DNA of 64,000 nucleotides from Bacillota bacterium (GTDB lineage Bacteria > Bacillota > SHA-98 > Ch115 > JABLXJ01): positions 326,538-390,537 of the forward strand of contig JABLXJ010000001.1 in the NCBI GenBank assembly GCA_013178125.1, given 5' to 3'. Under the pieces are notes generated by a model that made no database searches, had not been told where the DNA came from, and worked only from the letters and a program-made list of their open reading frames with translations. The translations under genes were made by a program, and so were the position numbers. Position 1 is the stretch's first letter. Each line of letters opens with the position of its first letter. This document shows positions 10,902-25,856 of this stretch, one piece after another.

Positions 10902-10932
10902 GACTGTTGGCGGTGCTTGGGGGGGTGATGGA

Positions 10933-11970
10933 ATGGCACAGCTCAAATATTGGAATGGAAGCGCGTGGGTGGATTATAAGAAAAAGCCAAAGTATTGGAA
11001 TGGTAGTCAGTGGGTGTCTGGTATCGGCAAAGTGTGGAATGGGAGTGCATGGGTAGACCTCTTGAGTTATTATTCTTATTTTGGTAGTTGGGCTAGCACC
11101 TATTCTTATTCTAATTTGTATAAGGTTTCATCTACTGGGTCTCAGGTGTGGCAAGTTCGTTGGACTTTCCAAGGCATAAGAGATGTGAAAGTAGACCCTA
11201 ATGGATATATTTATACTGCTAGTGGTGACGGCGCTGCTGTCCGCAAAATATCACCTTCCGGCTCCCTGGTGTGGCGTTTTGTGGGCAGTACTGGATATGG
11301 TGCAAATGGAGTAGCAGTAGGTTCTGATGGATACGTTTACTCTGCTAATAGTGACGGTACTGTCCGTAAAATAACACCTAATGGTGGACAGGTGTGGTGT
11401 TTTACTGACCCGGATCGCACATTTTATGCTGTAGCAGTAGATATTAATAACTATGTGTACGCTGGCTGTTCTAACTATACTAAAGCTATTCGCAAAATAT
11501 CACCTAGTGGGGGAGAGGTATGGGCTTTATCTCGTAGCAGTTTTGGGTCGGATGTAGTAGTAGATGCCCAAGGGAATGTTTATTGTAGCTCCGGAAGCCT
11601 TTATAAGGTGTCATCAAGCGGTTCAGTGCTATGGGAATTCACAAACGCGAGCGGAAGTCCTACAGTAGGCCCTGGTGGATATGTTTATGCGTCCGGTAGT
11701 AGTGGTCTTATCGCTAAAATATCACCTAGTGGATCACAAGTGTGGGGTTACACCGATCCAAATTCATCTTCGGTAATTAGTCTAACAGTAGACCCATACG
11801 GATATATTTATTATTGTCCTTATGCAGGGGCACCCTCTTCATCTACTGTATATTGCTATTACAAAATATCGCCTAGTGGTGTTAGATTATGGACTTTCGT
11901 TGTTGCGGAAGGTGAAGGATATGTTGCAGTTGACCCTGGAGTTTTAGGAGCTTTCCCAAGTTATTGGTAA
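10933..11970 (+). CDS. beta-propeller repeat protein, putative distal tail/receptor-binding protein
   Basis: Seven repeats of the type VRKISPSGS.VW.F; three N-terminal WNGSAWV repeats; RBS before ATG at 10933 (track start 10879 overlaps upstream gene); AT-rich. Confidence 0.5.
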   Translation: MAQLKYWNGSAWVDYKKKPKYWNGSQWVSGIGKVWNGSAWVDLLSYYSYFGSWASTYSYSNLYKVSSTGSQVWQVRWTFQGIRDVKVDPNGYIYTASGDGAAVRKISPSGSLVWRFVGSTGYGANGVAVGSDGYVYSANSDGTVRKITPNGGQVWCFTDPDRTFYAVAVDINNYVYAGCSNYTKAIRKISPSGGEVWALSRSSFGSDVVVDAQGNVYCSSGSLYKVSSSGSVLWEFTNASGSPTVGPGGYVYASGSSGLIAKISPSGSQVWGYTDPNSSSVISLTVDPYGYIYYCPYAGAPSSSTVYCYYKISPSGVRLWTFVVAEGEGYVAVDPGVLGAFPSYW

Positions 11971-11991: not shown

Positions 11992-12300
11992 ATGCCGATG
12001 CTGTTTTATGAGACGGAATCTGATACGCGAGGTCGGGTAATGCTGATTCATTACATGCCCGAGCAATTGACTGAGGAAGAGCGTAGCAAGGGAATAAGCG
12101 TAGATATAGTTCCTGACCCTCCGCAGCCGGTGAAAGGCAAATCCCATGTGCTCTACGTAAATCCTCAAACGGGCGAGACCTGGTATGAGCAGGTGGATAG
12201 GCTGCTTACGCAGGAGGAGCAGATGGAGGACCTGCGGAGCCAGAATCTTGACCTAATGGCTGCCATCGCCGATATGGCTGTAAAACTGGGGGTGATATAA
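11992..12300 (+). CDS. hypothetical phage protein
   Basis: ORF with RBS (aaggagg) following tail-fibre genes. Confidence 0.4.
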   Translation: MPMLFYETESDTRGRVMLIHYMPEQLTEEERSKGISVDIVPDPPQPVKGKSHVLYVNPQTGETWYEQVDRLLTQEEQMEDLRSQNLDLMAAIADMAVKLGVI

Positions 12301-12301
12301 C

Positions 12302-12457
12302 ATGAGCGCTTACTGGGTTAACATATTCTATTCCCTTGTTACGAGCGGAAGGAAGACCGTCAATGATGTACCTGAGAGTATAAGGCAACAGGTGATTGAT
12401 AGGCTCACGCAGGAAGGTTATGTAATGAATCCTGATGGCTCGGTGACGAAGGTCTAG
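12302..12457 (+). CDS. small phage protein (XkdX-like), 51 aa, absent from ORF track
   Basis: ATG one base after upstream stop; translation MSAYWVNIFYSLVTSGRKTVNDVPESIRQQVIDRLTQEGYVMNPDGSVTKV. Confidence 0.35.
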   Translation: MSAYWVNIFYSLVTSGRKTVNDVPESIRQQVIDRLTQEGYVMNPDGSVTKV

Positions 12458-12537
12458 TCTAAGAGTATATAGTGTAGAATGTAGAGTCTGCCTCTGGGCG
12501 GCTTTTTCATGTACTCCAAAAGGGCGGTGGTGGTAAC

Positions 12538-12771
12538 ATGGAACTCATACAGCTCCTTTCCCAATATCCTGCGGCTACGCTCGTTTTTGTGGCGTGGCCG
12601 CTTCTGTTTGTGTGGTTGCTCTGGTGGACCATGAAGGAACACGCGAAACGTGAAGAGCGGCTGATGGCGGCGAACGAGAGCTGGCGTGTCGCGTTGGAGA
12701 AGCTCGCGGAGAAGATAGACCAGCTCGGTGATAACCTTTTAGAGCGGTTGCGCGACGAGCTGAGGAGGTGA
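12538..12771 (+). CDS. putative holin / lysis-associated membrane protein
   Basis: 77 aa, one N-terminal hydrophobic helix and charged coiled-coil tail, immediately before the amidase gene. Confidence 0.45.
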   Translation: MELIQLLSQYPAATLVFVAWPLLFVWLLWWTMKEHAKREERLMAANESWRVALEKLAEKIDQLGDNLLERLRDELRR

Positions 12772-12777
12772 TGCCGT

Positions 12778-13338
12778 ATGCCGGAGATGAAAAGGCTGAT
12801 CTGCCTCGATCCAGGACACGGTGGGGTGGACCCCGGAGCTATAGGCCAGGCCGGGATTAAGGAAGCGGATATTAACCTGGCCGTAGCGATGAAGCTCAAG
12901 ACGGAGCTGGCTGAGAGAGGCATTCCCACTGTAATGACCAGGGATGACGATACGTTCGTGTCGCTCCAGGATCGCGCATCCAAGGCGAATGCTGCGAATG
13001 CTGCGGTTTTTATTTCCCTGCACTGCAATTCGGCTCAAAACCGCGAAGCGAATGGTGCCGAGGTTTACTACTGCATTGGCAGCAGGCCCGGGGAAGCCCT
13101 GGCGAACGCGATACATGCTTCCCTGATCAAGGCTACCGGCCTCGTCGATCGTGGTGTGAAGGGGACAGGCTTCTATGTCCTCCGGCATACCAAGATGCCT
13201 GCTGTCTTGGTGGAGCTCGCGTTTATTTCTAATTCGGGAGAGGAGGAGCTATTGGCAAATGAGGGATTCCAGTTGAAGGCCGCAAGGGCCATTGCCAGCG
13301 GGATAATAGATTATCTGAAAGGAGCGAGGAAAATATGA
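12778..13338 (+). CDS. N-acetylmuramoyl-L-alanine amidase (endolysin, Amidase_3-type)
   Basis: Motifs CLDPGHGG and LHCNS...EVYY; lysis cassette position. Confidence 0.85.
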   Translation: MPEMKRLICLDPGHGGVDPGAIGQAGIKEADINLAVAMKLKTELAERGIPTVMTRDDDTFVSLQDRASKANAANAAVFISLHCNSAQNREANGAEVYYCIGSRPGEALANAIHASLIKATGLVDRGVKGTGFYVLRHTKMPAVLVELAFISNSGEEELLANEGFQLKAARAIASGIIDYLKGARKI

Positions 13339-13622
13339 GTATACTGAAGGTTCTGGGTTATATCCGTATCGCATTATGCCTTGTCCTACCGTTCGCGGTA
13401 TTGGCAGAGGATACTGGCCAGCCGGGCGAAGAGAAGAAGAAGATGGTTGTAGGTCGGCTGAAGGATGAACTCGCCAGACTTGGCTTGGTTCTTCCTGAGT
13501 GGTTGAAGAAGTATGAGGAGTTTCTGCTGGGCGTAGTGGTTGATGTCGTGGTGGCGATCTTGAACCGCATGGGTTTTTTCGAGCATTCCGGGACATCCGA
13601 GCCCGACTTGAAGCCAGCGTGA
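13335..13622 (+). CDS. putative holin-like membrane protein
   Basis: 95 aa with two hydrophobic segments; start overlaps amidase stop. Confidence 0.4.
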   Translation: MSILKVLGYIRIALCLVLPFAVLAEDTGQPGEEKKKMVVGRLKDELARLGLVLPEWLKKYEEFLLGVVVDVVVAILNRMGFFEHSGTSEPDLKPA

Positions 13623-13781
13623 AACTGGACCCGTTTTCGGTCAGGGTTGAATATCATGTAGCGGCTGGCAGGCTTCCCAAAGAGAATCCGGGGGAGCTAA
13701 ATGATTCAGTAAGGGAGCAAGCGTTGAAGGACGCTATTGATCATATCCCACAGGTGCGGTTTGAACATTGATTTTTTATCG

Positions 13782-13810
13782 CCCGGCCCTCGAAAGGGCC
13801 GGGCTTTTTT
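13782..13810 (+). terminator. intrinsic terminator closing the prophage late operon
   Basis: Stem cccggccc/gggccggg with loop tcgaaa, followed by a T6 run. Confidence 0.6.
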
Positions 13811-13862
13811 GAGTATCGGGGCAGGGATGCGACTGGGACATAGACCTTTTGGTGGCGAGGTT

Positions 13863-13896
13863 AAGTTGGCATGGAGTTGGCATGGATAAGTTGGTC
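13863..13896. repeat. three direct repeats of AGTTGG(CATGG) downstream of the prophage terminator
   Basis: aagttggcatgg / agttggcatgg / ataagttggtc read directly. Confidence 0.5.
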
Positions 13897-14082
13897 AAGA
13901 GAGGGTTCCGCCACGCTATGCGCACTTACCACCCTATGGCATAACGGGGAACGGGATGGATATTGGTGCGATCAGGTAGCGGCTTAACTGACAAACCCAT
14001 CTCTGGGGTTATGCATGCTATGAAATTTTTCGTTTTAGCAGGAGTATATAAAGGTATGTCGAATATAGTAGCTACAAGTTAG

Positions 14083-14123
14083 TTTAAACGTTTATATATA
14101 ACGTTTAAATAAAGCGTTTAATT
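14083..14123. promoter_or_regulatory. LacI-type operator candidates (three AAACGTTT cores)
   Basis: tttaaacgtttatatataacgtttaaat plus aaagcgtttaatt just upstream of the LacI-family gene RBS. Confidence 0.4.
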
Positions 14124-14147
14124 AGAAAAAGTTTCCGGAGGAAACTA

Positions 14148-15164
14148 ATGGCTACAATAAAGGACGTTGCAAGGGAAGCAGGGGTATCTATAGCCACTGT
14201 TTCCCATGTGCTAAACAATACTACTTTGGTAAGCGAGAAAACTGCGCAAAAGGTACTGGCAGCGATTAAAAAGGTCAATTATCATCCAAATAGCGTCGCC
14301 CGTAGCCTGGTCACTAAGGTCACTATGACGCTGGGTATTATCATTTCTAATATCACAAATCCATTTTATCCTGAAGTGGTTCACAGCATTAGTCGGGCAG
14401 CCGCAAAGAATGGATATGATATCATTCTCACGAGTACGAACAACGACGAAGAGGGTATTGCTCAATCAGTTCGCACTTTGTGTAAGCGAAAGGTTGACGG
14501 GGTTATTATCTTGGCTAGTAAATTTGATGATAATTTAATCTCTCAACTTACCGAACAAGGCATGGAAGTCGTTGTCTATGATAGGAATATCCCTACACTT
14601 CCGGTAGATAGTGTAGAAATTGACTATGAATTTGGGATATCGCAAGCTATACAATATCTGAAGGATCTAGGTCACACCCGTATTGGGTATATAGGTGGGG
14701 CACCTGATTGGTTGACTGCTCAAAAACGTCTAATAGCATTTCAAAATGCCATGTCTAGATATGGCTTAAAAATAGATGAGCGTTTAATTGTCGCGAAAGA
14801 CTGGACATTACGAGGCGGATTTCAGGCAATGAATACTATGTTGCGGATAAAAAGCAGACCAACGGCAATAGTTGCGTGTAATGATATAGTCGCTGTAGGA
14901 GCCTTAAAGTCTATTAGAAGAAAAGGTCTAAAATGTCCTGAGGATATTTCAGTTGTAGGAATTGATGATATTGTATTGGCATCATTGATTACACCGGCTC
15001 TTACAACCATTGCCTTACCTCGAAATCAAATTGGCGAGGTTGCTACGAAAATGGTTATAAAACGGCTTAGACATAAGGGGCCTCACAGCCAGAAACCCTA
15101 CACAGTCATATTCAGACCCAATCTGGTAATCCGGGACTCGACAGGGCCCCCTTTTTTCAAGTAG
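14148..15164 (+). CDS. LacI-family transcriptional regulator
   Basis: N-terminal HTH MATIKDVAREAGVSIATVSHVLNN; sugar-binding-like C-terminal domain; RBS ggagg. Confidence 0.9.
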   Translation: MATIKDVAREAGVSIATVSHVLNNTTLVSEKTAQKVLAAIKKVNYHPNSVARSLVTKVTMTLGIIISNITNPFYPEVVHSISRAAAKNGYDIILTSTNNDEEGIAQSVRTLCKRKVDGVIILASKFDDNLISQLTEQGMEVVVYDRNIPTLPVDSVEIDYEFGISQAIQYLKDLGHTRIGYIGGAPDWLTAQKRLIAFQNAMSRYGLKIDERLIVAKDWTLRGGFQAMNTMLRIKSRPTAIVACNDIVAVGALKSIRRKGLKCPEDISVVGIDDIVLASLITPALTTIALPRNQIGEVATKMVIKRLRHKGPHSQKPYTVIFRPNLVIRDSTGPPFFK

Positions 15165-15327
15165 TGGGTTATATCTTTTCAATAGTCTTCTATAGGTCTA
15201 CAATTGACCATAGCATTGGCCCAGTATGGGATTCCGTATAAGGGGGTGGGTATATGATCTAGGGGACGCTTGATAATTGGTGAGATCTTTTGGTAACTAA
15301 GATAAATTGCAAAGGGGTGTATGGTTA

Positions 15328-16359
15328 ATGAAGGTCCGACAAGTAAATAGATATGTTATTCTTGTGTCGTTGATAGTCTGTATTTCATTTATTCTTATGG
15401 GAACCCTATCTGCTTTTGCTAAAACACCCACGATCGCCTTAGTTCCAAAATGGGAGGGCATTCCTTATTTCACTGTTGCTGCCGAAGGGGCTAAGCTAGC
15501 TGGTAAACAACTAGGGGTTAATGTAATCTACGTTGGCCCGAGCGAACCCGATGCCACTCAGCAGGTTCAAGTTATTAATAATTTGATTTTACGTGGAGTT
15601 GATGCTATAGGTATATCCGTTATGGATGCTAATGTACTAAAACCTGTCATCAAGAAGGCAAGGGAAGCTGGCATCCATGTTTTCACTTGGGATTCCGATG
15701 CCCCGGACTCTGAGCGGGAAGTCATGGTCCAACAAGTATCTCCAAAGGAACTCGGGTACACTGTAATGGATCTTCTTGCAAAAGAAATGAACTACAAGGG
15801 CAAATTCGCTATTATCACTGGCGATCTAGCTTCTAACCAGCTCAACGAATGGATGGAGTATGAAAAGGAACGCTACCAACAAAAGTACGCCAAGACAATG
15901 GAACTCGCTAGTATAAAAGCTCCTGGGGTTACTTTCGATAAGGTCTTTGATACTGTAAGCACTATGATGCGGACTATGCCCGAGATTACCGGCTATATCG
16001 GGGAGCATTCGGAAGCTGGGCCTGGAATTGCTGCCGCTGCCGAACATGTTAAGGTTTCCCCGCAAAAGGTGGTTGCGGTAGCTATCACTACTCCTGACAA
16101 CATGAGGAAGTATTTCAAGAAAGGAAACTCGGTCGTCCGCTATGGAGTTCTTTGGGATGTTAAAGCCTTAGGCTATGTGTCCGTTTGGGTAGGTAAGCAA
16201 CTGATTGAAGGAAAGCCACTTACAGATAAAGTACCAGGTATTGAGCAATTTGAGGCAATTGAGGAAGGGTACCCTAAATATATCCCTGAAAAGAAGTGGG
16301 TACTACTTGGTCCACCTTTAATATTCAATGAGAAAAATATAGATAAATATCATTTCTAA
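15328..16359 (+). CDS. ABC transporter substrate-binding protein (periplasmic-binding-protein type 1, sugar-type)
   Basis: Signal peptide then PBP1-like sequence; start placed at ATG 15328 after RBS (track start 15307). Confidence 0.8.
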   Translation: MKVRQVNRYVILVSLIVCISFILMGTLSAFAKTPTIALVPKWEGIPYFTVAAEGAKLAGKQLGVNVIYVGPSEPDATQQVQVINNLILRGVDAIGISVMDANVLKPVIKKAREAGIHVFTWDSDAPDSEREVMVQQVSPKELGYTVMDLLAKEMNYKGKFAIITGDLASNQLNEWMEYEKERYQQKYAKTMELASIKAPGVTFDKVFDTVSTMMRTMPEITGYIGEHSEAGPGIAAAAEHVKVSPQKVVAVAITTPDNMRKYFKKGNSVVRYGVLWDVKALGYVSVWVGKQLIEGKPLTDKVPGIEQFEAIEEGYPKYIPEKKWVLLGPPLIFNEKNIDKYHF

Positions 16360-16398
16360 ACTCTATTGTAAACCCCTAATTCGTCTAGGAGATAAGGT

Positions 16399-16420
16399 TA
16401 ATATATATATATATATATAT
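16399..16420. repeat. (AT)n dinucleotide microsatellite, about 11 units
   Basis: taatatatatatatatatatat read directly. Confidence 0.9.
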
Positions 16421-16427
16421 GCCACTT

Positions 16428-16450
16428 GGCTCCGGGGTAAACCCGGAGCC
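16428..16450 (+). other. perfect 9-bp stem-loop between substrate-binding and ATPase genes (no T-run)
   Basis: ggctccggg gtaaa cccggagcc. Confidence 0.5.
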
Positions 16451-16508
16451 GTCTCTGAGTATACACTCTACTGGCCTTCGCAGGCCTGATGAGGGGAGAG
16501 CCTTCTTA

Positions 16509-18002
16509 ATGGCGGAATTAATGGAATTAAAGGGTATAAGCAAGGAATTTGGAGGCGTCAAGGCCCTAGTAGATGTAGATTTTGAGCTGAGGTCAGGCGA
16601 GATTCATGCCTTAGTCGGGAAGAATGGAGCGGGTAAGAGTACGCTTGTCCAAATCCTTTCCGGGGTAATAAATCCAGATAAAGGTAAAATTTTTTATAGA
16701 GACCAAGATGTAACCTGCTGGAATAACCGGCAAAAACGACTACGGATTTCCCACGTATTTCAACATATACAATATTTTCCAGAGCTTCCTGCTGGAAAGA
16801 ATATCTTCATTGGTAGGGAAGAGGTCGATCGCTACGGTAGACTTAAGTGGGATCAAATGTATGGGAGTCTGGAAGATATTTTATCTAAATTCGGCATCGA
16901 TAAACAGATTCTTTATCGGCCGATGAGAGAGCTTTCTGTAATGGAAAGAGAAATCATCGCAATTGTAGAAGCCCTTTCCAAAAATTCAGAGATATTCATT
17001 TTTGATGAGCCTACTGCTGCGTTAGGAAAAGATGAGGCTGAGCAACTTCTATCGGTAATTCAGGACCTTAAGGCCAAAGGTGCGGCTATTGTCTATATTA
17101 GTCACCGTCTTGAAGAAATTATAGGATTTGCAGACTATGTAACGGTACTACGTGATGGTCGAAAGATCTCCACTGATTCCATGGCTTCTATAACTAAAGA
17201 GCAGATCGTACACAAAATGGTTGGTGAAAAGATAGGACACATTTATCCTCACCGAACTACCCAACATCGTGGCTCTGTTTTACTGAAGGTGAGCCAGCTA
17301 ACTAAACGTTCTGTTTTTGAAAACATTACATTTGAAATACACGAAGGGGAAATCTTAGGACTAGCTGGGCTATTAGGTGCGAAACGAACAGACATTGCTC
17401 AAGCTATATTTGGCACGATAACCTATGATTCGGGTACAGTTGAGATTGAAAGAATCTCCTTGCCTAAGCATAGTCCCGCGCTCTCCATCGAAAAAGGTCT
17501 AGTGTACTTACCTGAGAACAGGCAAGAAGACGGTTTAATCCTTAGTACAAGCATCCGAGAGAATATCACTTTGCCAATCCTTCGTCAATTCGGTGGGAAT
17601 GGTTTTTTAAACCGCATTGTAGAACGGAAGATCGTTCAGGATAGTATCGACCGTCTAGGGATTAAGGCTGAAGATATTGATACTTTAGTAAATCATTTAA
17701 GCGGTGGAAATCAACAAAAAGTCTTATTCGCTAAATGGCTCAACACCTCTCTGAAAGTGTTAATGCTTGACGAACCAACCCAGGGTATTGACGTTGAGGC
17801 GAAAGCAGAAATCCACCGCATCCTCGGCGATCTTGTTAATCATGGCATAGGAATCCTTCTTATATCTTCTGACCTGGAGGAGCTCATAGCTATGAGCGAT
17901 CGAATCATCGTCGTCCACGAAGGGCGGATAATCTCCGAATTTACAGGTAGTGAAGTGACTATCGAAAAAATCCTGCTCGCCGCTATGGGGGTGCAACAAT
18001 GA
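16509..18002 (+). CDS. ABC transporter ATP-binding protein, two fused nucleotide-binding domains
   Basis: Walker A GKNGAGKST, LSGGNQQK signature; start placed at ATG 16509 after RBS gaggggagag (track start 16419 lies in the AT repeat). Confidence 0.9.
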   Translation: MAELMELKGISKEFGGVKALVDVDFELRSGEIHALVGKNGAGKSTLVQILSGVINPDKGKIFYRDQDVTCWNNRQKRLRISHVFQHIQYFPELPAGKNIFIGREEVDRYGRLKWDQMYGSLEDILSKFGIDKQILYRPMRELSVMEREIIAIVEALSKNSEIFIFDEPTAALGKDEAEQLLSVIQDLKAKGAAIVYISHRLEEIIGFADYVTVLRDGRKISTDSMASITKEQIVHKMVGEKIGHIYPHRTTQHRGSVLLKVSQLTKRSVFENITFEIHEGEILGLAGLLGAKRTDIAQAIFGTITYDSGTVEIERISLPKHSPALSIEKGLVYLPENRQEDGLILSTSIRENITLPILRQFGGNGFLNRIVERKIVQDSIDRLGIKAEDIDTLVNHLSGGNQQKVLFAKWLNTSLKVLMLDEPTQGIDVEAKAEIHRILGDLVNHGIGILLISSDLEELIAMSDRIIVVHEGRIISEFTGSEVTIEKILLAAMGVQQ

Positions 18003-18979
18003 ATTCTTCTGGACCCGTACGCAAGACCCCCAGGTCAAATCAGTTTGGCTCAATGCTATACGAACGAGAAGTCCTTGCCCTTTTGGTAGCGATAATTATG
18101 TGGGTTGCATTTGGGTTGATAAATCCACGTTTTCTGACATGGGCAGGCATAACTGACATTATTTTTTCCTCAACAGTTATTGCAGCCGGGGCTCTTGGGA
18201 GCAGCATGGTTATTATAGCGGGCGAATGGGATCTCTCTGTCGGTTCGATGTTAGCTTTGCAGGCGACCATTATTGCGCTACTCGCTAGCTCAAATGTGGT
18301 TACCAATCTATTTGTTATGATCCTGGTTGTGATAGTAATCGGAATGGTGCTTGGTTTCATTAATGGGATTCTGGTATCGTTTGGGGGACTTTCTTCGATT
18401 ATAGTTACCATTGGTACTATGTTTGTTTACCGAGGTCTGTGCTTGATAATAGCTGGTGGACGATGGTTTACCAGTCTACCAGCGTGGTTAACTAGTGTCG
18501 GTCAGGTATCAACATTTGGTATAAGGCCTTCTCTCATCATTATCCTTGTTCTTACTGCAATATTATCTCTTTTCATGAGCCAAACAAGACTAGGGCTTTG
18601 GATTTACGCTTTAGGTGGGAATGAAAACGCACTACGTCTAAAAGGGATAAATGTACGCTGGGTAAAAGTATTAGTTTTCTGTACTACCGGGGTACTAGTT
18701 GGTGTGGCCGCATTGATTTTGGCTGGTCAGTATGGGTACGTGCAGACTGATATTGGCTATGACTACGTCATGGCCACCATTGCAGCAGCGATTGTTGGAG
18801 GTACCAGCGCCTTCGGCGGTCGAGGTCGTATAGGCGGAGCTATTATTGGAGCGCTGTTAATTGGAATCATGAAAACAGGATTGGTTGCTATAAACATTCC
18901 AGCCCAATGGTATAACGTAGTGCTCGGCATCCTGATCTTACTTTCAATGACCAGGGAAATGCTACAGAAACGTACCTGA
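17999..18979 (+). CDS. ABC transporter permease
   Basis: Polytopic membrane protein; start overlaps ATPase stop. Confidence 0.85.
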   Translation: MNSSGPVRKTPRSNQFGSMLYEREVLALLVAIIMWVAFGLINPRFLTWAGITDIIFSSTVIAAGALGSSMVIIAGEWDLSVGSMLALQATIIALLASSNVVTNLFVMILVVIVIGMVLGFINGILVSFGGLSSIIVTIGTMFVYRGLCLIIAGGRWFTSLPAWLTSVGQVSTFGIRPSLIIILVLTAILSLFMSQTRLGLWIYALGGNENALRLKGINVRWVKVLVFCTTGVLVGVAALILAGQYGYVQTDIGYDYVMATIAAAIVGGTSAFGGRGRIGGAIIGALLIGIMKTGLVAINIPAQWYNVVLGILILLSMTREMLQKRT

Positions 18980-19004
18980 GCATATGAGGAGTGGTGAATT
19001 GAGC

Positions 19005-19943
19005 ATGGTCAAAGAAGCTATGGCAGCCAAGCGTGAATCTTTACTACTCATAATCCTGGTGGCCTTGATTCTTTTATTTGGAGGGCTCTCGCCTAACTTC
19101 CTTGTTCCGTACAGCTTCACTGTAATGAGCCAGTATCTAGCGGAAATAGGGTTACTATCCTTGGCTATAACTATAGGGCTCATTAGTGGGCTTCTTGATC
19201 TGTCAATAGGTTCGATCTTCGGGCTTTCTGCTGTTTCTATTGGCTTACTGGCTAAGACCGGATTAAATATCTGGGTGTCAGCATTTCTTGGAGTTATAAT
19301 TGGCATGGTAGCTGGCGGATTGAATGGAATCCTGGCAGCCTTTACGCCCATTCCCCCATTGATTATTACTCTGTCTACTCAATTCATCTTTGCAGGGATT
19401 AGTCTAGCACTAACTCGCGGCAACCCAGTCACTGGTCTCCCTGAAAATTATTCGTTCATAGGCCAGACTCAGATTGGTCCGGTACCACTGCAACTACTAG
19501 TTTTTCTAATCGTTACGATTGCCTCTTCAATTCTTATGCAGTACATGGGGCTAGGACGCAAGATGCGCCTCATGGGGAAAAGTAACCGTGTTGCATGGTT
19601 TTCTGGTGTCAACGTCCCTATGGTAAAGATCATGGTCTATGTGTTATCCGGCTTTCTTAGCGCTTTAGCCAGTATTATTCTTACTTCAAGAGTAATGACA
19701 GCTAGGCCGGATGCTGGCCAGACTCTAGGGTGGACAATCCTGACAGTAGCTTTTTTAGGCGGCGCTTCCCTGGAAGGGGGTACTGGTACGATCCTAGGGG
19801 CATTATTCGGTGCCATGATTATTGTGATATTATCTACAGGGATCGAGGTTGTCGGTTTAGATATCGGCCAGCGGTTGTTGACTCAGGGTTTGGTTTTGCT
19901 GGTTGTAGCAGGAACAGGTAGACTTCTTAAAATCAAGGATTAG
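19005..19943 (+). CDS. ABC transporter permease (second)
   Basis: Polytopic membrane protein; ATG 19005 has an RBS (track start 18984 does not). Confidence 0.8.
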   Translation: MVKEAMAAKRESLLLIILVALILLFGGLSPNFLVPYSFTVMSQYLAEIGLLSLAITIGLISGLLDLSIGSIFGLSAVSIGLLAKTGLNIWVSAFLGVIIGMVAGGLNGILAAFTPIPPLIITLSTQFIFAGISLALTRGNPVTGLPENYSFIGQTQIGPVPLQLLVFLIVTIASSILMQYMGLGRKMRLMGKSNRVAWFSGVNVPMVKIMVYVLSGFLSALASIILTSRVMTARPDAGQTLGWTILTVAFLGGASLEGGTGTILGALFGAMIIVILSTGIEVVGLDIGQRLLTQGLVLLVVAGTGRLLKIKD

Positions 19944-19961
19944 AGTAAGGGGGAAATGAAT

Positions 19962-20702
19962 ATGAGTAGTGATTTCATCCATACGCTATCCAATATATTA
20001 AGTAATCTGGAGTTTGTTGATTTAAGTCACCGATTAGAGGAGGATATTCCAACTTTCCCAACACATTCCCATTTTTATCATTTGAAATGGGAGAATCCTG
20101 ATGATCCCGCTACGATGTTTCAATTCATGATGCATGAACATAATGGTACCCATGTCGATGCTCCAGCCCATTATCTAAGGGAAGGTGTAGGGAATAGGGA
20201 GGATGCATGGATTGATGCTATTCCGCTCCAAACTCTCATTGGCCCTTGTAAGGTTCTTCAATTAGCAGGATTCGATAACCGTAATCTCTTATCCAAGTGC
20301 CATATTGAGGACTGGGAAGCTAATCACGTTCGAATCCAGAAAGATGATATTGTACTCTTGAATTTCGGCTGGCATAAACGTTGGACTACCTCTAAGGAAA
20401 GATATCAGTTCGCTAAAGATTGGCCGGGGCTCACGAGGGACGCGGCCCTTTACCTAGCCGAAAAAGAGGTTAAGGCTGTGGGGACCGATTGCATTGGACT
20501 CGATTGTTGTGGTAGTACCGAAATACCAGCTCATGATGTGTTACTTGCTCGCAACATATTAATCATGGAGAATTTAGCAAATCTTGATTTATTACCGGAT
20601 GAAAGCTTCTTCATCGCTTTTCCGCTAAAAATTAAACAAGGTTCTGGGTCTCCTATACGGGCGGTTTCCCTTATACCCAAGACAGGGGGATCGATGACGT
20701 AG
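19962..20702 (+). CDS. cyclase-family protein (kynurenine formamidase-like metal hydrolase)
   Basis: Motif HEHNGTHVDAPAHY; RBS taagggggaa. Confidence 0.8.
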   Translation: MSSDFIHTLSNILSNLEFVDLSHRLEEDIPTFPTHSHFYHLKWENPDDPATMFQFMMHEHNGTHVDAPAHYLREGVGNREDAWIDAIPLQTLIGPCKVLQLAGFDNRNLLSKCHIEDWEANHVRIQKDDIVLLNFGWHKRWTTSKERYQFAKDWPGLTRDAALYLAEKEVKAVGTDCIGLDCCGSTEIPAHDVLLARNILIMENLANLDLLPDESFFIAFPLKIKQGSGSPIRAVSLIPKTGGSMT

Positions 20703-20750
20703 CTTCTCACCGAAAATGTAAGGATAATTAAATATAGGGAGTGGGATCAG

Positions 20751-21935
20751 GTGGTTTGTAGAAATAGTATTAGTAACGAATTCCGGCAAAGATGGGTTAA
20801 ACTGAAGGAAAAAATGATTACGAGGGGGCTAGATCTTCTCTTTATTTATTCCAATGACCGTGCTGTATTTGGTCCTGGAAATATACGGTACCTGTCAAAT
20901 TTCCCTGTACACTTTGAACACGCAGCGATCATTATGCCAAGATTCGGGGAACCCATCTTGGCAGTCGGACCGGAAACAAGGGAATATGCTGAGTTAAGTT
21001 CCGAAGTTAAAGATATACGGGTAATTAAAGAGTTCGCCATTCCCGATGAAGAATATCCTTATACCAGTATGACCTCTTTATCAGCGATCTTGGAAGAAAT
21101 CAGGTCAAACTCGGGCAACGAGGTAAGGTCAATAGGCCTCATTGGCTTAGATTTATTGCCCTGGTCCCTCTATCAGGTTCTTGAAAATACTCTTCTATCG
21201 AACCGACGGGTGGAAAACGCCGAGGACATTTTGATAGATATGAGATCGATTAAAAGTCAATATGAAATTGAAATAATTGAAGAAGGGTATGCGATTGCCG
21301 ATAAAGCAATGGAGGCCTGTGTCGAAGCCGTTCATGTCGGGACAACAGAGTTGGCTATTGCTGCGGCTGGGGAAGCAGTGATGAGAAAGCTAGGTGCCGA
21401 GGGGTATGCGATAGATACAATCGTTGCTAGTGGTAAACAAAGAACCTATCCGATTGTAGTCCGTCCTTCTGATCGTAAAATTGAGAAAGGCGATGTGGTT
21501 TTAATCACTATGGGTCCTCGATATAAGGGGTACAATCCTGCGATCGGTCGACCTGTGATCGTGGGGGATGCACCGGAAGTAATTATCGAGGCAATGCAAT
21601 TAGCATTAAAAGCTCAGCATGCCGCGGAGGCAGCCTTACGCCCCGGCGCCATCGGGTGTGACGTGGAGGGAATGGCCCGTAAAGTCTTAGCGGAGGCTGG
21701 GCTTGAGCAATACTTTGTTTATGCCGGGGTGCATAGTGTTGGGCTAGCCGAATTTGAGCCTCCGATCCTTTCCCCCAAAAGTAACCTGCAGGTGAAGGAG
21801 AATATGGTCTTGTCCATCGATATCCCACTTTTCCTTACCCCATGGGGTGGATTCCGTTACGAGGATGGATTCGTCGTTACCAGCGATGGTTGTCGACGAT
21901 TGAATCATTTCCCGCGAGAGATCATTAAAGTTTAA
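20751..21935 (+). CDS. M24-family metallopeptidase (Xaa-Pro peptidase / creatinase-like)
   Basis: Creatinase-like N-domain plus M24 pita-bread region (GVHSVGLAEFEPP, FRYEDGFVVT). Confidence 0.8.
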   Translation: MVCRNSISNEFRQRWVKLKEKMITRGLDLLFIYSNDRAVFGPGNIRYLSNFPVHFEHAAIIMPRFGEPILAVGPETREYAELSSEVKDIRVIKEFAIPDEEYPYTSMTSLSAILEEIRSNSGNEVRSIGLIGLDLLPWSLYQVLENTLLSNRRVENAEDILIDMRSIKSQYEIEIIEEGYAIADKAMEACVEAVHVGTTELAIAAAGEAVMRKLGAEGYAIDTIVASGKQRTYPIVVRPSDRKIEKGDVVLITMGPRYKGYNPAIGRPVIVGDAPEVIIEAMQLALKAQHAAEAALRPGAIGCDVEGMARKVLAEAGLEQYFVYAGVHSVGLAEFEPPILSPKSNLQVKENMVLSIDIPLFLTPWGGFRYEDGFVVTSDGCRRLNHFPREIIKV

Positions 21936-22276
21936 TCCATACAGTGAGGGACCCTTATGGTGGGCACTCCCGGCTACATGAGATGGTCTTGGCACCACAC
22001 TATACAGTCCGAACAGGGGAAGATACAGCCATTCCTACGGCTTGGAGTGCCTTCCCGCAAACCCCCGGCAGGGGAAGACGTAGACGATAACGTTGACCCT
22101 CTTGTTCTACCTACATTTCGCACCCCTCAGGGGTATGTGGGGACATTTTCTGAGGTCATATGTGAAGATGGGACGGTAGCGCCCGTGTAATAGCGTAAAA
22201 AGTAGAAGGGGCCCGGGAAAGAGGAAGGCCCCCCTTGATAGATGAGGTTTTATTAAACCTCCCGTTCGCCCCTTGT

Positions 22277-22307
22277 GCCCGGTCGGAAGGCCGGGCTTTT
22301 ATGTTTT
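22277..22307 (+). terminator. intrinsic terminator
   Basis: Stem gcccgg/ccgggc with 8-nt loop followed by ttttatgtttt. Confidence 0.5.
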
Positions 22308-22336
22308 ATCTAAATTCCAAAAGAATCTCCTCATAG

Positions 22337-22368
22337 CTATTGACATATTCAATAATTATTGATATAGT
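22337..22368 (+). promoter_or_regulatory. sigma-70-like promoter (TTGACA, 17 bp, TATAGT) with embedded palindrome TCAATAATTATTGA; copy 1
   Basis: Read directly; 30 bp nearly identical to 23511-23540. Confidence 0.5.
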
Positions 22369-22404
22369 ATAAGTGATGAAAGGAAATTGCAGGAGGGAAA
22401 CGAA

Positions 22405-23196
22405 ATGACAAACAGGGCATTCGGAATTGAAATAGAGGCTTATGGAGTGAGCCAGTTCGAGCTAGAGGACAGACTCCGGCAGGCTGGGATACAGGTAAGG
22501 GTTGAAGGGTACAACCATAGCACCAGGGAACACTGGAAAATAGTTAGCGACGGCTCAATCCAAGGCCCGGACTCGTTCGAACTAGTCAGCCCTCCACTGA
22601 GCGGAGAAGAAGGACTCAATCAGATTAGGACAGTATGCCGGGTGCTGGATGAGGTAGGCGCGAAGGTTAACAAGTCGTGTGGCTTCCATGTCCACCACTC
22701 GGCGGCAGACCTGACACCAAAGGCCCTGCAGGCATTGATCGGACTATACACTAGGTTCCAGGGCGCGCTAGACGAGATAGTAGCAAAGAGCCGCCGCGGT
22801 AATAACAATACATACTGCCGGGCCCTTAGCAATGAACTATACTACAGGGCCCTCAGGCGGGATGACTTACAGGGTATTGTATGTTGCCAGGATAGTAGGT
22901 ATTATAAACTTAACCTGCAAGCATATCTGAGGCATGGCACGATAGAGATTCGGCACCACCAGGGCACCGTGAATGCTGACAAAATAATAAACTGGATCAG
23001 GTTGACCCAGGCGATAGTTGAGGCGGCGGTGAGGTTAAACCACAGCAAGCTGAGCTTGGACAACCACACGGGCCGTCTGGATCACGACAGGTGGCACTTC
23101 TGGAACACAGTGAAAAAGGTCTTGGATGCAGGTGAATTCGAGGAGCTAAGGGCATACTACGGGCAGCGGCGCAAGGAGCTCGCCGCTGCCGCCTAG
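22405..23196 (+). CDS. glutamine-synthetase-like amidoligase (Amidoligase_2-type), putative
   Basis: N-terminal FGIEIE and C-terminal GTIEIRHHQGT motifs recalled as typical of GS-like amidoligases; RBS aggaggg 7 nt before ATG. Confidence 0.5.
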   Translation: MTNRAFGIEIEAYGVSQFELEDRLRQAGIQVRVEGYNHSTREHWKIVSDGSIQGPDSFELVSPPLSGEEGLNQIRTVCRVLDEVGAKVNKSCGFHVHHSAADLTPKALQALIGLYTRFQGALDEIVAKSRRGNNNTYCRALSNELYYRALRRDDLQGIVCCQDSRYYKLNLQAYLRHGTIEIRHHQGTVNADKIINWIRLTQAIVEAAVRLNHSKLSLDNHTGRLDHDRWHFWNTVKKVLDAGEFEELRAYYGQRRKELAAAA

Positions 23197-23206
23197 AAAG
23201 GCGGTA

Positions 23207-23446
23207 ATGACTATGAAGGTGGTTACATACGAGGGACAGGTCATAGAAGGGACTCCGGAGAAAATAGTCCAAAAGCTAGCGGATACCAGTTTTACTGATT
23301 CTGGGATGCCCGGCCCTGAATATATGCGGACGGTAGCCCGCAGGATAGCGGCCTTGCATGGCGAGGAGCAAGCAGAGGAGATAGAAGACCCGGAAGGATT
23401 CCTCCGGGTTATGGAGCGGTATGGAGTGCTGCGGATAGAAGAGTAG
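23207..23446 (+). CDS. hypothetical small acidic protein (79 aa), co-transcribed with the amidoligase
   Basis: Starts 10 bp after the amidoligase stop. Confidence 0.4.
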   Translation: MTMKVVTYEGQVIEGTPEKIVQKLADTSFTDSGMPGPEYMRTVARRIAALHGEEQAEEIEDPEGFLRVMERYGVLRIEE

Positions 23447-23510
23447 ATACCATAGGGCACTTATCGTCGATAGAATTCTGCTCAAAAAATCTAAATAAAT
23501 TCATTCTGTC

Positions 23511-23542
23511 TTATTGACATATTCAATAATAATTGATATATT
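23511..23542 (+). promoter_or_regulatory. sigma-70-like promoter (TTGACA, 17 bp, TATATT) with near-palindrome; copy 2
   Basis: ttattgacatattcaataataattgatata, 2 mismatches from copy 1. Confidence 0.5.
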
Positions 23543-23580
23543 AAAAAGGGAAAGGAGATACACCAAAGGAGGCAGTCCTA

Positions 23581-23838
23581 ATGGATAGTAAACAGAAACT
23601 TGGAATACTACAGGCCGAGATGGAGGAAGTTAAGCGGGTGATCAAGAGGGTTGAGGATGCGGCATATAGTACCGGCAACCTTGATGAGGTAGTGGGAGCG
23701 ACCGGAGACTATGGAGTAATCCTGGATGCACTGAGGGAGAAAGAAAATTCCATACGATGGTCGATAGAAGTGGTGCATAGAGAGATTAGGGAAGCCACCG
23801 AGGGTGAAGAAGATTTACTGAGCCAGTTAGTCAGATAA
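23581..23838 (+). CDS. hypothetical small coiled-coil protein (85 aa)
   Basis: RBS aaaggaggcag; follows promoter copy 2. Confidence 0.4.
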   Translation: MDSKQKLGILQAEMEEVKRVIKRVEDAAYSTGNLDEVVGATGDYGVILDALREKENSIRWSIEVVHREIREATEGEEDLLSQLVR

Positions 23839-23891
23839 AATACAGAGCCCGTCGGGAGCCTGAATCCTGGCAGGCAATAAGAGGTGGTACA

Positions 23892-24185
23892 ATGTTAATA
23901 ACATTTGGAGAGGCCGCCCGTAGGTGGAAGATAGATATTTCGACTTTGCATAGGGCGCACCAGAGAGGAGAGCTGCCTGCCCGGCAGTCTGCTGGGTCCT
24001 GGCTTTGCGAGGAGGAGGATGTCCGGGCCGTTTTTGGTGAGGAGAATCCTCCGGAGGGTTGGGTAACGATCCCTGAAGCAGTCAGACTCCTGGGCATTAC
24101 CAAGGCAGCGGTGTACTCAAAGGTGAAACGTGGAATACTGCCTTCGGTGAAAGCCCAGGGCATTTTATGGGTTCCGCGGCCATAA
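23892..24185 (+). CDS. excisionase/MerR-like HTH DNA-binding protein with two HTH_17-like halves
   Basis: Two repeats of the type ITFGEAARRWKIDISTLHR and VTIPEAVRLLGITKAAVYSKVKRG. Confidence 0.5.
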   Translation: MLITFGEAARRWKIDISTLHRAHQRGELPARQSAGSWLCEEEDVRAVFGEENPPEGWVTIPEAVRLLGITKAAVYSKVKRGILPSVKAQGILWVPRP

Positions 24186-24286
24186 AGAAGGACTTTTACG
24201 TTTCTTATCATGCCTATGAGGGATTGAAATGATATTGTGTTTGTTACAGGATTTACTATCATACTTATAAGGATTCCCTTTTTTGG

Positions 24287-24310
24287 ATCCGGTTTTAGAC
24301 CGGATTTTTC
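24287..24310 (+). terminator. intrinsic terminator
   Basis: atccggt tttag accggat followed by tttt. Confidence 0.45.
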
Positions 24311-24416
24311 GATGTATCCTATGGAAACCTTTGTATCACTTGTTGACATCGTGATCAAAACCTGATACGGTTGGAATTGAATGAAAATCCTCCTGCATGT
24401 GGGAAGGGATATTGAA

Positions 24417-25364
24417 ATGACAGCTATGCAGAAGTGGACGAAGGAGTCTGTTGTGGAGGCTATCCATGCACGGTCTAAGAAAGGGCTGGCACTAAATTAT
24501 CAAGCTGTTGTAAAGGACGATGAACCGCTTACAGGTGCCGCCAGGCGATATTTCGGCTCCTGGAATACAGCGTTACAAGCGGCTGGATTTGACCCGGCAG
24601 CGATAAAAAGGGAGGCAAGGAGTGGACTTCGCAGATCGCGCGGCTCCTGGACTAAGGAGGATGTAATCGAGGGTATTCGTAGAGCGGCGGCGGAGGGTCA
24701 AGACCTCTCGGCGCATAGGATGCAACAGTGGGACCCTTCTTTAGTGGCTACGGGCCAGCGGCTATTTGGTTCCTGGGCCGATGCACTCAAGGCCGCAGGA
24801 TACGCGCCTGACCTAATTTACAGGGCTCGTGTGTGGACGGATGATGAAATCCTCAAGCGTGTCAAGTATTTAGCCAAGTATGGCGCTGACCTGACTGACC
24901 GGACTGCATCCGGATACGACAAAGGTCTCTATGCCGCGGCCATAAAACATTTCGGGTCATGGGCTTCTGCCTTGGAACGGGCGGGAGTTCCACCTGAGCG
25001 GCGCACGGCGAAGTGGTCGAAGAATAAGGTTTTGGAGGCTATCCGTAATGGTAGGCGTGATGGCACGATTAAAGCTATAGCTCTGGATTATTTCCCTTCA
25101 TGGGCAACGGCCCTACGGAAGGCAGGTATCCCGGAAGATAAGGCACAAGAAGTCGGCAACCGTATCCGTGAACGACGGGAGGCTCTGGGTATGAGCCAGG
25201 GTGAGTTAGGCCGGTTCTTAGGGTATAGTCATAGGACCATTTCGATGCTGGAACTTGGGCAGCTCCGTGATCCGCGGGTAAGTGTGGCATTGAAGCTGGC
25301 GAAGGCACTGAAGTGTAGTGTTGAGGACATCTTCTATACTGAGGAAAAGGAAATATTATTCTAA
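24417..25364 (+). CDS. DNA-binding protein with four homing-endonuclease-associated repeats (HEAR) and C-terminal XRE HTH
   Basis: Four repeats ending FGSW..AL..AG; C-terminal HTH LGMSQGELGRFLGYSHRTISMLELG; RBS gggaaggga before ATG 24417. Confidence 0.6.
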   Translation: MTAMQKWTKESVVEAIHARSKKGLALNYQAVVKDDEPLTGAARRYFGSWNTALQAAGFDPAAIKREARSGLRRSRGSWTKEDVIEGIRRAAAEGQDLSAHRMQQWDPSLVATGQRLFGSWADALKAAGYAPDLIYRARVWTDDEILKRVKYLAKYGADLTDRTASGYDKGLYAAAIKHFGSWASALERAGVPPERRTAKWSKNKVLEAIRNGRRDGTIKAIALDYFPSWATALRKAGIPEDKAQEVGNRIRERREALGMSQGELGRFLGYSHRTISMLELGQLRDPRVSVALKLAKALKCSVEDIFYTEEKEILF

Positions 25365-25390
25365 AGTAGCCCGGTCGAAGGATCGGGTCA

Positions 25391-25816
25391 TTACTTATCC
25401 CTGAGAACCATCAGGTATGGCTCCAGGGCGGCAAGATGTACCGTGCTTGGTGTGCGTTTTCCTTTCTCCCAGGTGGCTATGGTGTGTACATCCACTCCAA
25501 TGGCCCTTGCGAATTCGACCTTCGCCAGCCCGTGGAAAAGGCGGGCTTTCCTTATGCGCTGCCCGAGCGTTTCCTCGGGCAGGGTCTCGAAACCGCCTAA
25601 ATAAGGTATTGGGACGTCAAGAGTCTGGGACAGAATCCGAAGAGTAGGCATGGAGGCCGGTTCTTTCCCGGCTTCGATCCTGCCTATTGTTGCACAGTTC
25701 AAACCGGTGATGGAAGCTAAGTCGCGGATGGTCATGCCCTTCGCTATCCTCGCCCGCCTGAGCCGCAGCCCTGGTGTGTTGCCTGGCCATTCCTGCCTTA
25801 ATACCCACGGTGGCAT
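25391..25816 (-). CDS. XRE-family transcriptional regulator with two HTH domains
   Basis: Two XRE HTH segments (GMTIRDLASITGLNCATIGRIE and LAKVEFARAIGVDVHTIATWE); start uncertain (ATG 25816 or GTG 25837). Confidence 0.6.
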   Translation of the reverse strand: MPPWVLRQEWPGNTPGLRLRRARIAKGMTIRDLASITGLNCATIGRIEAGKEPASMPTLRILSQTLDVPIPYLGGFETLPEETLGQRIRKARLFHGLAKVEFARAIGVDVHTIATWEKGKRTPSTVHLAALEPYLMVLRDK

Positions 25817-25856
25817 ATCTTTCTGTCTGGTTATCACAATTTCAAGGTTGTTGTCT

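Follow-up and report, generated by a model that had tools for sequence, protein, structure and literature searches.

Does a temperate phage here carry a complete nutrient-uptake operon, and if so, what would that operon take up? The question is raised by seven AT-rich genes at 14083-21935 of the window, by which we mean the whole 64,000-nucleotide stretch of contig JABLXJ010000001.1 that was analyzed. A preliminary description of this DNA had noted a LacI-type regulator, a sugar-type ABC transporter, a cyclase and an M24 enzyme, and had suggested that they were acquired horizontally. Our analyses suggest that the block is a self-contained moron, located in the accessory region that follows the lysis genes of a PBSX/phiCT19406B-like temperate myovirus, which lies in comM of an uncultivated Bacillota host, and derived from a donor of lower GC content. 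We give this reading a probability of roughly 0.6.

The AT-rich block and its prophage setting

Seven intact, co-directional open reading frames (ORFs) occupy 14148-21935 on the + strand, as seen from the ORF list and from Pfam and NCBIfam profiles. Gene starts at 15328, 16509, 18999 and 19962 are those called on an identical contig, L001 (described below); the longest ORFs open slightly upstream. The block and its upstream region comprise the following features:

14085-14121, + strand: candidate LacI operators, about 55 nt 5′ of lacI
14148-15164, + strand: LacI-family regulator, 338 aa (PF00356 LacI HTH, 2.7e-21; PF13377 Peripla_BP_3, 4.3e-38)
15328-16359 (ORF opens at 15307), + strand: substrate-binding protein, 343 aa (Peripla_BP_4, 8.4e-53)
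16509-18002 (ORF opens at 16419), + strand: ATPase with two fused nucleotide-binding domains, 497 aa (two ABC_tran stretches)
17999-18979, + strand: permease 1, BPD_transp_2, RbsC-like (Pfam, 1.4e-37)
18999-19943 (ORF opens at 18984), + strand: permease 2, BPD_transp_2 (Pfam, 9.7e-34)
19962-20702 (ORF opens at 19956), + strand: Cyclase-family (PF04199) metal-dependent amidohydrolase, 246 aa (Pfam, 9e-36)
20751-21935, + strand: M24-fold protein with Creatinase_N and Peptidase_M24 domains, 394 aa (Pfam)

GC content is 43.6% over 14083-21935 and 55.6% in the remaining window. The difference is also seen when genes are compared by their GC and by GC at third codon positions (GC3):

Operon, 7 genes: mean GC 0.440 (sd 0.016), GC3 0.408
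Phage genes left of the operon, n=16: mean GC 0.520, GC3 0.557
Genes right of the operon, n=3: mean GC 0.540, GC3 0.594
Core genes, n=25: mean GC 0.575, GC3 0.686

Per gene, the operon differs from the phage genes (Mann-Whitney p = 1.6e-4; p = 8e-4 for GC3) and from the core genes (p = 6e-7, and again p = 6e-7 for GC3). The edges are sharp, with a drop in GC at about 14000 and a recovery right after the stop codon of the M24 gene at 21935. The composition statistics and these edges therefore indicate that the low-GC block is real and not a chance fluctuation. A Logan contig that was assembled separately (L001, from SRR6186653) is 100% identical to window positions 12163-22634 and spans both GC junctions. 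Because this independent contig reproduces them, the junctions are not an artefact of the metagenome-assembled genome, and an assembly chimera is ruled out. Comparison with known sequences gave no match to E. coli or plasmid DNA. The block had been described as visibly AT-richer than both the prophage and the core genome, with GC statistics proposed as the check. The calculated values bear this out (GC3 0.41 versus 0.56 for phage and 0.69 for core genes), and horizontal acquisition stands as well, the block being compositionally foreign to both prophage and host while lying inside prophage DNA. A lower-GC donor without representation in databases is the best explanation of its origin.

The surroundings of the block are clearly phage-derived on the left and end at a disrupted chromosomal gene on the right:

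12538-12771: holin-like ORF (PHROG 2429)
12778-13338, + strand: phage endolysin, Amidase_3 (Pfam E=3.7e-57; PHROG 435 endolysin)
13781-13804, + strand: strong intrinsic terminator with a 10-bp stem (9 GC pairs) followed by a T-run
21957-22190: ORF of 77 aa without a family match, between the cargo and the downstream terminator
22277-22296, + strand: strong terminator downstream of the cargo and the 77-aa ORF
22387-25837: prophage right arm, from an amidoligase gene to an HTH regulator gene, with GC back at phage level by 22277-22296
25857-26957, - strand: truncated comM, 366 aa, whose translation ends in '...LIATSNPCP*', inside the conserved NPCPCG motif

Pfam and PHROG matches identify the first 13.6 kb of the window (1-13.6 kb) as a phage late region, with genes for an SLT-domain tape measure protein, XkdP/XkdQ-like proteins, baseplate J, two Mtd_N tail fibres and a beta-propeller protein. 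The endolysin gene is the last recognizable late gene 5′ of the cargo. Small ORFs (13335-13622 and 13619-13771) come next, and then the terminator at 13781-13804, which closes the lysis cassette upstream of the cargo. At the other end, the Mg_chelatase profile is matched over only 1-160 of its 207 positions, at the very end of the truncated ComM protein, which is without the C-terminal domain. Beyond comM lies a typical Firmicute core array including dprA, topA, trmFO, xerC, hslVU, codY and rpsB. Since comM is interrupted within its NPCPCG motif and core genes follow, we place the right junction of the inserted element at about 25857.

The complete temperate Clostridium phage phiCT19406B shares backbone synteny with this prophage. 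Its genes run in the order tape measure protein, XkdP, XkdQ, XkdS, baseplate J, fibres, XhlA, holin and amidase, and a serine recombinase is encoded at the other end of the genome. Integration within comM would fit a serine-recombinase phage of this kind. The two elements differ in the stretch between amidase and attR, which in phiCT19406B is a 2.4-kb accessory region of small genes (Cro/CI, CopG) and here extends for 12.2 kb, with the AT-rich operon accounting for 7.9 kb. The cargo thus occupies the accessory position of phiCT19406B. An insertion sequence (IS), a transposon or a tandem element was considered as the vehicle and rejected, there being no IS-like flanking direct or inverted repeats at the block, no integrase or transposase gene bordering it, and no further att-core copy inside the element within the window. 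The post-lysis position and the comM junction are therefore best read as those of a phage moron: phage genes extend on both sides up to comM, terminators flank the cargo, and its GC3 is 0.41 against 0.56, with attL and the integrase gene lying beyond the window.

The regulator, the importer and the two hydrolases

With its N-terminal LacI HTH domain and a periplasmic-binding-protein-like effector domain, the first protein of the operon is a LacI/GalR repressor. Its top NCBIfam matches, RbsR and PurR, all score far under the equivalog cut-offs. A perfect palindrome, TAAACGTTTA, lies at 14085-14094 and is followed by two degenerate repeats, AACGTTT and AGCGTTT; the block start given in the preliminary description, 14083, coincides with this putative operator 5′ of lacI. 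An Rfam scan of 13.3-26 kb returned nothing credible as a riboswitch or other RNA that would name the ligand.

The next four genes encode an importer of CUT2 type, composed of a Peripla_BP_4 protein, a double-domain ATPase and two BPD_transp_2 permeases. Pfam thereby confirms the two-domain sugar-type ABC transporter proposed earlier. The ATPase matches RbsA, XylG and AraG at 450 bits, under their equivalog cut-offs. In the PDB, the binding protein is most similar to LsrB (1e-46), the autoinducer-2 (AI-2) receptor, and to the rhamnose-binding protein RhaS (1e-34). Nevertheless, it scores 187.7 bits against the LsrB model NF011937 (cut-off 384) and 177 bits against the RhaS model TIGR02637 (cut-off 342). 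The AI-2 contacts of LsrB are K35, D116, D166, Q167, P220 and A222, with D166 and A222 reported as required (Pereira 2009, as cited in PMC6166536). The corresponding residues here are K, D, Q, L, E and S, so that only two of the six contacts are kept and the two required residues are replaced by Gln and Ser. The solved RhaS proteins 4kvf and 5bq3 read KDNQPT at the aligned positions, and the window sequence KDQLES differs from them at four of the six. Based on the failed thresholds and the different pocket, the binding protein is not an AI-2 receptor and is not orthologous to RhaS. By sequence, it belongs to an uncharacterized branch of the LsrB/RhaS (methyl- or deoxy-sugar) clade. It does not cluster with characterized monosaccharide-binding proteins, an outcome that would have spoken against the earlier reading, nor with AI-2-binding proteins.

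Close relatives of this protein are rare. Among 5.8 billion protein clusters the sole one is 67% identical and comes from GCA_964654185.1; the next match is at 43%. When six more distant homologues were rescanned, none reached the LsrB or RhaS cut-off, and several of them carry source names such as 'autoinducer 2 binding' or 'rhamnose transport'. A 'RhaS-like pocket' with the pattern (Q/K)-D-N-L-x-S in the distant homologues was also considered; it was dropped given the absence of any RhaS-level score among the six and the KDNQPT of the solved proteins. The translated binding protein begins with a type I signal peptide (...LSAFA|KTPT) and has no canonical lipobox. Its closest relatives (P0122, P0123 and P0125) also have type I signal peptides, and the more distant homologues have lipoboxes. 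The type I signal peptide points to a diderm-type envelope of the donor, the host or both.

The cyclase had been likened to kynurenine formamidase. This holds for the fold and the metal site and fails for the family assignment, as the protein scores 92.6 bits against TIGR03035 (cut-off 223) and its gene neighbours are the transporter and the M24 protein. A role in the kynurenine pathway was accordingly rejected, the arylformamidase cut-off being missed and no tryptophan-pathway genes lying nearby. The best PDB matches are isatin hydrolase B (4e-28) and KynB (2e-19). The motif HxGTHxDxPxH, a later His and a Glu provide all six metal ligands of the kynurenine-formamidase type; these residues line up with the motifs of KynB and of isatin hydrolase and place the protein among the PF04199 metal hydrolases. 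In 27 homologues, H60, G62, T63, D66, P68, H70, H191 and E203 are invariant and H64 is nearly so. We therefore predict that the cyclase is active and uses its metal site to hydrolyze an amide, a lactam or possibly a lactone. Subfamily members that are more than 50% identical sit with M24 proteins and transporters, and homologues with 45% identity or less have no M24 neighbour.

The M24 protein aligns without gaps to the Pyrococcus furiosus prolidase 1pv9, whose metal ligands we take to be numbered D209, D220, H284, E313 and E327; the positions themselves were read from the alignment. There the window protein has T253, A264, H328, D357 and E371. Both Asp ligands are thus replaced (D209 by Thr, D220 by Ala), Glu 313 has become Asp, and H284 and E327 are kept. 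The H291 position is Phe (F335). T253, I235, H328, F335, D357 and E371 show no variation among 53 clade members with 44-61% identity, and conservation of A264 is 90% or higher. This degenerate-site clade is large, mostly from uncultivated Anaerolineae/Chloroflexi, and annotated only as 'aminopeptidase P / Xaa-Pro'. The protein scores 172.7 bits against PepQ (cut-off 630) and lacks the five-ligand set (Asp, Asp, His, Glu, Glu) that defines M24B peptidases; it is not a canonical dinuclear peptidase. Use of Xaa-Pro peptides was rejected on the same two grounds. The earlier label 'Xaa-Pro-peptidase-like' misleads, since the entire clade has lost the two Asp ligands. The protein shares the domains of creatinase, which is also without the canonical dinuclear ligand set, and in the loss of that site it resembles creatinase more than a metallopeptidase. 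Its overall similarity, however, is to prolidases (1e-44), with far weaker matches to creatinase (1chm, 4e-8) and to the ectoine hydrolase DoeA (2e-5).

Based on these observations, we propose the following sequence of events. The LacI-family repressor would bind the TAAACGTTTA palindrome and the repeats 5′ of its own gene and keep the operon off until the ligand appears. The secreted binding protein would catch a small polar ligand and pass it to the CUT2 importer, whose architecture suggests ATP-driven transport from periplasm to cytoplasm. In the cytoplasm, the cyclase, judged by its metal site, may hydrolyze an amide, lactam or lactone bond, and the M24 'pita-bread' protein, with its Asp ligands lost, may perform or assist a second step. 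The net effect would be a lysogenic conversion in which the host gains a nutrient-scavenging ability.

Occurrence elsewhere and the weighing of alternatives

The full order of binding protein, ATPase, two permeases, cyclase and M24 protein recurs once, on contig CAZZIE010000005.1 of GCA_964654185.1 (L002/L095), at 53-67% identity. That cassette differs in having a divergent AraC regulator in place of LacI, a non-prophage context and a GC content of 0.55, and its neighbours are PfkB, IF-2B, SIS and GATase1_like genes and a CUT1 ABC system. With a GC of 0.55, it is not the donor of the AT-rich operon. The finding of the cassette in a single other genome agrees with the earlier view that this is not a standard sugar operon.

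The cyclase-M24 pair on its own is found in Alphaproteobacteria and some metagenome contigs (cyclase 51-54% and M24 41-42% identity). Its neighbours there are an NMT1/TauA-type ABC system, Amidohydro_1, GATase1_like, hydantoinase A/B, DAO-type oxidases, GcvT/H and a second Creatinase_N-like protein. In three alphaproteobacterial loci (L084, L087 and L088) the cyclase gene lies between a 460-aa Creatinase_N-like gene upstream and a 393-aa degenerate-site M24 gene downstream, in a cluster with NMT1 ABC system, amidohydrolase, hydantoinase A/B, DAO and GcvT/H genes that looks like an uncharacterized N-heterocycle pathway. A cyclase of 54% identity has genes for an Opp-type ABC system and for an enzyme of the arginase family as neighbours (L099). 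This locus was rejected as a third transporter context, as its M24 protein is 28% identical, keeps the canonical ligands and is not an orthologue.

Relatives of the M24 gene give a different impression. In 80 metagenome loci, the genes within 3 kb of an M24-clade gene included:

URO-D-like protein: 9/80 loci
L-rhamnose mutarotase (RhaM): 7/80 loci
429-aa xylose-isomerase-like TIM barrel (rhamnose-isomerase-like, RhaI-like): 5/80 loci
Transketolase-like beta subunit: 5/80 loci
Amidohydro_2: 4/80 loci
FGGY kinase: 3/80 loci
CUT2 components: 3/80 loci

Members of the M24 clade abut RhaM or RhaI-like genes, often at a distance of 4-40 nt (L105, L107, L130, L142, L146, L151 and L175; L108, L111, L112, L158 and L165), an association that is not anticipated by the generic 'aminopeptidase P' annotation. 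In a neighbour-joining tree, the cyclase-linked M24 proteins are polyphyletic, and the sisters of the window's subclade sit with RhaM, Dak1 and a CUT2 transporter. Given this polyphyly and an adjacent cyclase in only two of the 80 loci, an obligate cyclase-M24 pair was rejected. The module is combinatorial, and its two lines of context disagree on the class of ligand. Literature searches turned up nothing relevant on a characterized cyclase-creatinase or M24-rhamnose-mutarotase system.

These contexts pull in opposite directions on the earlier suggestion of a small amide or N-containing substrate 'rather than a simple sugar'. It is favored by the pairing with NMT1-type ABC, amidohydrolase, hydantoinase A/B, DAO and GcvT/H genes in Alphaproteobacteria and one metagenome contig. 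It is opposed by RhaM, RhaI-like, FGGY kinase and CUT2 genes, which are the commonest sugar-related neighbours of the M24 clade, and by the place of the binding protein in the LsrB/RhaS clade. Our first choice for the ligand, tentative and somewhat short of even odds, is a deoxy-sugar-like molecule bearing an amide, lactam or lactone group that can be hydrolyzed.

The main alternative is uptake and breakdown of a small amide or N-heterocycle that is not a sugar, such as creatinine, a hydantoin or a guanidino-lactam. The cyclase would open the ring in the manner of isatin hydrolase, and the M24 protein would act like creatinase, with the urea or ammonia released serving as a nitrogen source. 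The alphaproteobacterial and metagenome clusters with their NMT1/TauA-type transporters, hydantoinase A/B, DAO-type oxidases and GcvT/H speak for this, as do the 54%-identical cyclase beside Opp-type and arginase-family genes, the missing dinuclear site of the M24 protein, and the nature of the cyclase's closest relative of known structure, a lactam hydrolase. On the other hand, the importer is of the CUT2 LsrB/RhaS type and its binding protein retains the Lys and Asp through which LsrB contacts sugar hydroxyls; the window's M24 subclade, like the whole clade, is most recurrently found beside rhamnose-type genes; the M24 protein is far nearer to prolidases than to creatinase; the M24 gene of the arginase locus L099 encodes another protein, in which the canonical ligands are kept; and the operon is without urease, sarcosine or other nitrogen-assimilation genes. 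We consider an N-heterocycle unlikely, with a minority chance that still deserves attention; the rest of the weight goes to ligands of some other kind.

The operon could also be something other than phage cargo, namely part of a separate integrative island or an insertion into a decaying prophage remnant, and never be packaged. The integrase gene, attL and the head and packaging genes lie beyond the window; with the operon, the element gains about 8 kb over a backbone that measures about 38 kb in cultured relatives; and no IMG/VR contig encodes a detectable relative of this cyclase subfamily or an ATPase closely related to the one here. When IMG/VR was scanned with the endolysin, baseplate J, HNH/HTH protein, cyclase and ATPase, matches were either absent or limited to distant or short contigs. 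In INPHARED, CUT2 permease and binding-protein matches do not exceed 32% identity and come mainly from bacterial whole-genome shotgun records, short unannotated fragments or two Campylobacter phage records (about 31%). Phage carriage of such an operon therefore looks rare. Nevertheless, intact tail, holin and endolysin genes lie directly upstream, phage-type genes continue downstream to the comM junction, the borders of the block show no second att core, integrase or transposase, and the position equals the accessory slot of phiCT19406B. These features make a non-phage origin improbable, more so than the N-heterocycle ligand.

An ordinary L-rhamnose uptake operon of the RhaSTPQ type, with the two hydrolases as passengers, is very unlikely. 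The importer layout equals that of RhaSTPQ, RhaS is the second-best family match and M24-clade genes lie beside RhaM/RhaI-like genes in 12 loci. The RhaS score, as given above, is far under the cut-off, the pocket differs from that of the solved RhaS proteins at four of six positions, rhaM, rhaI, rhaB and rhaD are absent from the operon, and the cyclase and M24 protein are conserved with the transporter, at 60-67% identity, in the only other instance. Lsr-type AI-2 uptake, by which the phage would quench or eavesdrop on quorum sensing, is largely refuted and barely credible: LsrB is the top PDB and NCBIfam match of the binding protein, the layout matches LsrACDB and the NCBI name reads 'autoinducer 2 ABC transporter substrate-binding protein', but the score is far under the LsrB cut-off, the required residues are replaced, and in place of lsrK, lsrF, lsrG and lsrR (no kinase, aldolase or isomerase) the operon has the cyclase and M24 genes.

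The moron reading, with its deoxy-sugar-like ligand, must itself be set against a number of observations that weigh on the other side. On its left side the prophage runs past the window edge, with integrase, attL, comM 3′ fragment and head/packaging genes all lying outside, and no related phages with or without the cargo were found for comparison. TAAACGTTTA is single-copy in the window, and one match arose by chance in 48 of 100 shuffles; since it is not statistically exceptional, its operator role is based on its position and the LacI-family consensus. No strong sigma-70 promoter was detected 5′ of lacI. The conserved non-ligand 'PHG' His of prolidases is Ile235 in the M24 protein, which, given this change as well, could be non-catalytic. 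A cyclase lies next to an M24-clade gene in only two of the 80 loci, 66 of the 80 have no sugar-type neighbour within 3 kb, and the substrate signals conflict, the cyclase-M24 pair also being found with NMT1-type transporters and creatinine/hydantoin-type genes.

If the cargo is packaged, one infection could deliver a complete, regulated uptake-and-degradation pathway to new hosts, a clearer case of fitness-conferring lysogenic conversion than the usual single-gene morons. We can further speculate, with considerable doubt, that the conserved pair of a KynB-type cyclase and a degenerate M24 protein forms a previously unrecognized two-step catabolic module for a small cyclic-amide or lactone-bearing (deoxy)sugar-like metabolite, which is served by at least two confirmed kinds of ABC importer and was captured by the phage together with importer and regulator. 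If so, it would be rare in that an entire pathway for acquiring a nutrient, and not one auxiliary gene, is passed on by a phage. Database names in both families are misleading: the M24 clade is called 'aminopeptidase P / Xaa-Pro peptidase' without having the Asp ligands and is often found in rhamnose-type sugar loci, and the LsrB/RhaS-like branch is called 'autoinducer-2 binding' without having an AI-2 pocket. The M24 clade and the binding-protein branch are therefore targets for ligand and enzyme discovery and for the correction of propagated annotation.

Other prophage features and comparison with known systems

In addition to small ORFs, the right arm of the prophage holds the following genes:

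22387-23196: amidoligase (Amidoligase_2, 3.5e-45; PHROG 2443, 5.6e-56)
23892-24185: Xis/RDF-like ORF (PHROG excisionase match)
24381-25364: HNH_repeat+HTH protein (Pfam)
25391-25837, - strand: HTH regulator of Cro/CI type (PHROG repressor match)

Homologues of the amidoligase, at 42-45% identity, were found in five IMG/VR contigs. A 29-bp promoter-like element (TTGACA, 17 nt, TATAGT) around the palindrome TCAATAATTATTGA is present in two copies, at 22340-22368 and 23514-23542, one 5′ of the amidoligase gene and the other 5′ of an 85-aa ORF at 23581, and is probably a shared operator of the right arm. A solitary CRISPR-repeat-like 31-mer, ATTTCAATCCCTCATAGGCATGATAAGAAAC, lies at 24200-24230 on the - strand of the right arm. 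It matches the full Rfam model CRISPR-DR2 with 31.8 bits (E=0.009), under the gathering score of 37, and the window contains neither an array nor a further copy. Solitary repeat units have been put forward as a type of RNA anti-CRISPR in phages, and ATTTCAATCCCTCATAGGCATGATAAGAAAC could be one of these.

The late region contains a second piece of foreign composition, at 10879-11970 (and also at 5034-5921). The beta-propeller tail-associated gene there has a GC of 0.44 and a GC3 of 0.31, the latter below that of the cargo operon, which suggests mosaic replacement of a host-range module in the phage. The two adjacent tail-fibre genes at 7468-8493 and 8505-9473 both encode an Mtd_N N-terminal domain, in one case with DUF2793. 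In a Bordetella phage, Mtd is the target of diversity-generating retroelements. No reverse transcriptase was found among the window ORFs scanned, and a template repeat was not searched for.

Compared with known systems, the importer has the same components as LsrACDB, with one Peripla_BP_4 protein, one double-domain ATPase and two BPD_transp_2 permeases, and the equivalents of Lys35 and Asp116 of LsrB are retained. It differs from that system at four of the six pocket positions and in the lack of Lsr catabolic genes in the operon. RhaSTPQ, the rhamnose transporter, is a CUT2 importer of the same layout; here, too, four of the six pocket positions are changed, and the operon has no Rha catabolic genes. 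The cyclase shares with KynB the fold, the HxGTHxDxPxH motif, the later His and the Glu, but it is under the arylformamidase cut-off and is without tryptophan-pathway neighbours. The isatin hydrolases, its nearest solved relatives, are without the Glu that KynB and the window protein have.

As in the prolidases and aminopeptidase P of family M24B, the M24 protein combines a Creatinase_N domain with the pita-bread fold, and the archaeal prolidases are its closest relatives. Creatinase and DoeA are only distant matches. In the DoeA/DoeB (EutD/EutE) pair, an M24 hydrolase works alongside a second amidohydrolase, which recalls the pairing of cyclase and M24 protein seen here.

The block as a whole is most readily compared with phage morons, with which it shares a regulator of its own, terminators on both sides, a location flanked by the lysis genes and the attachment site, and a GC content unlike that of the phage backbone. 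Typical morons consist of one or a few genes that encode toxins, exclusion factors or single exporters (PMC10259446). In contrast, the cargo of the comM prophage is a 7.8-kb, seven-gene operon that combines an importer with candidate catabolic enzymes.

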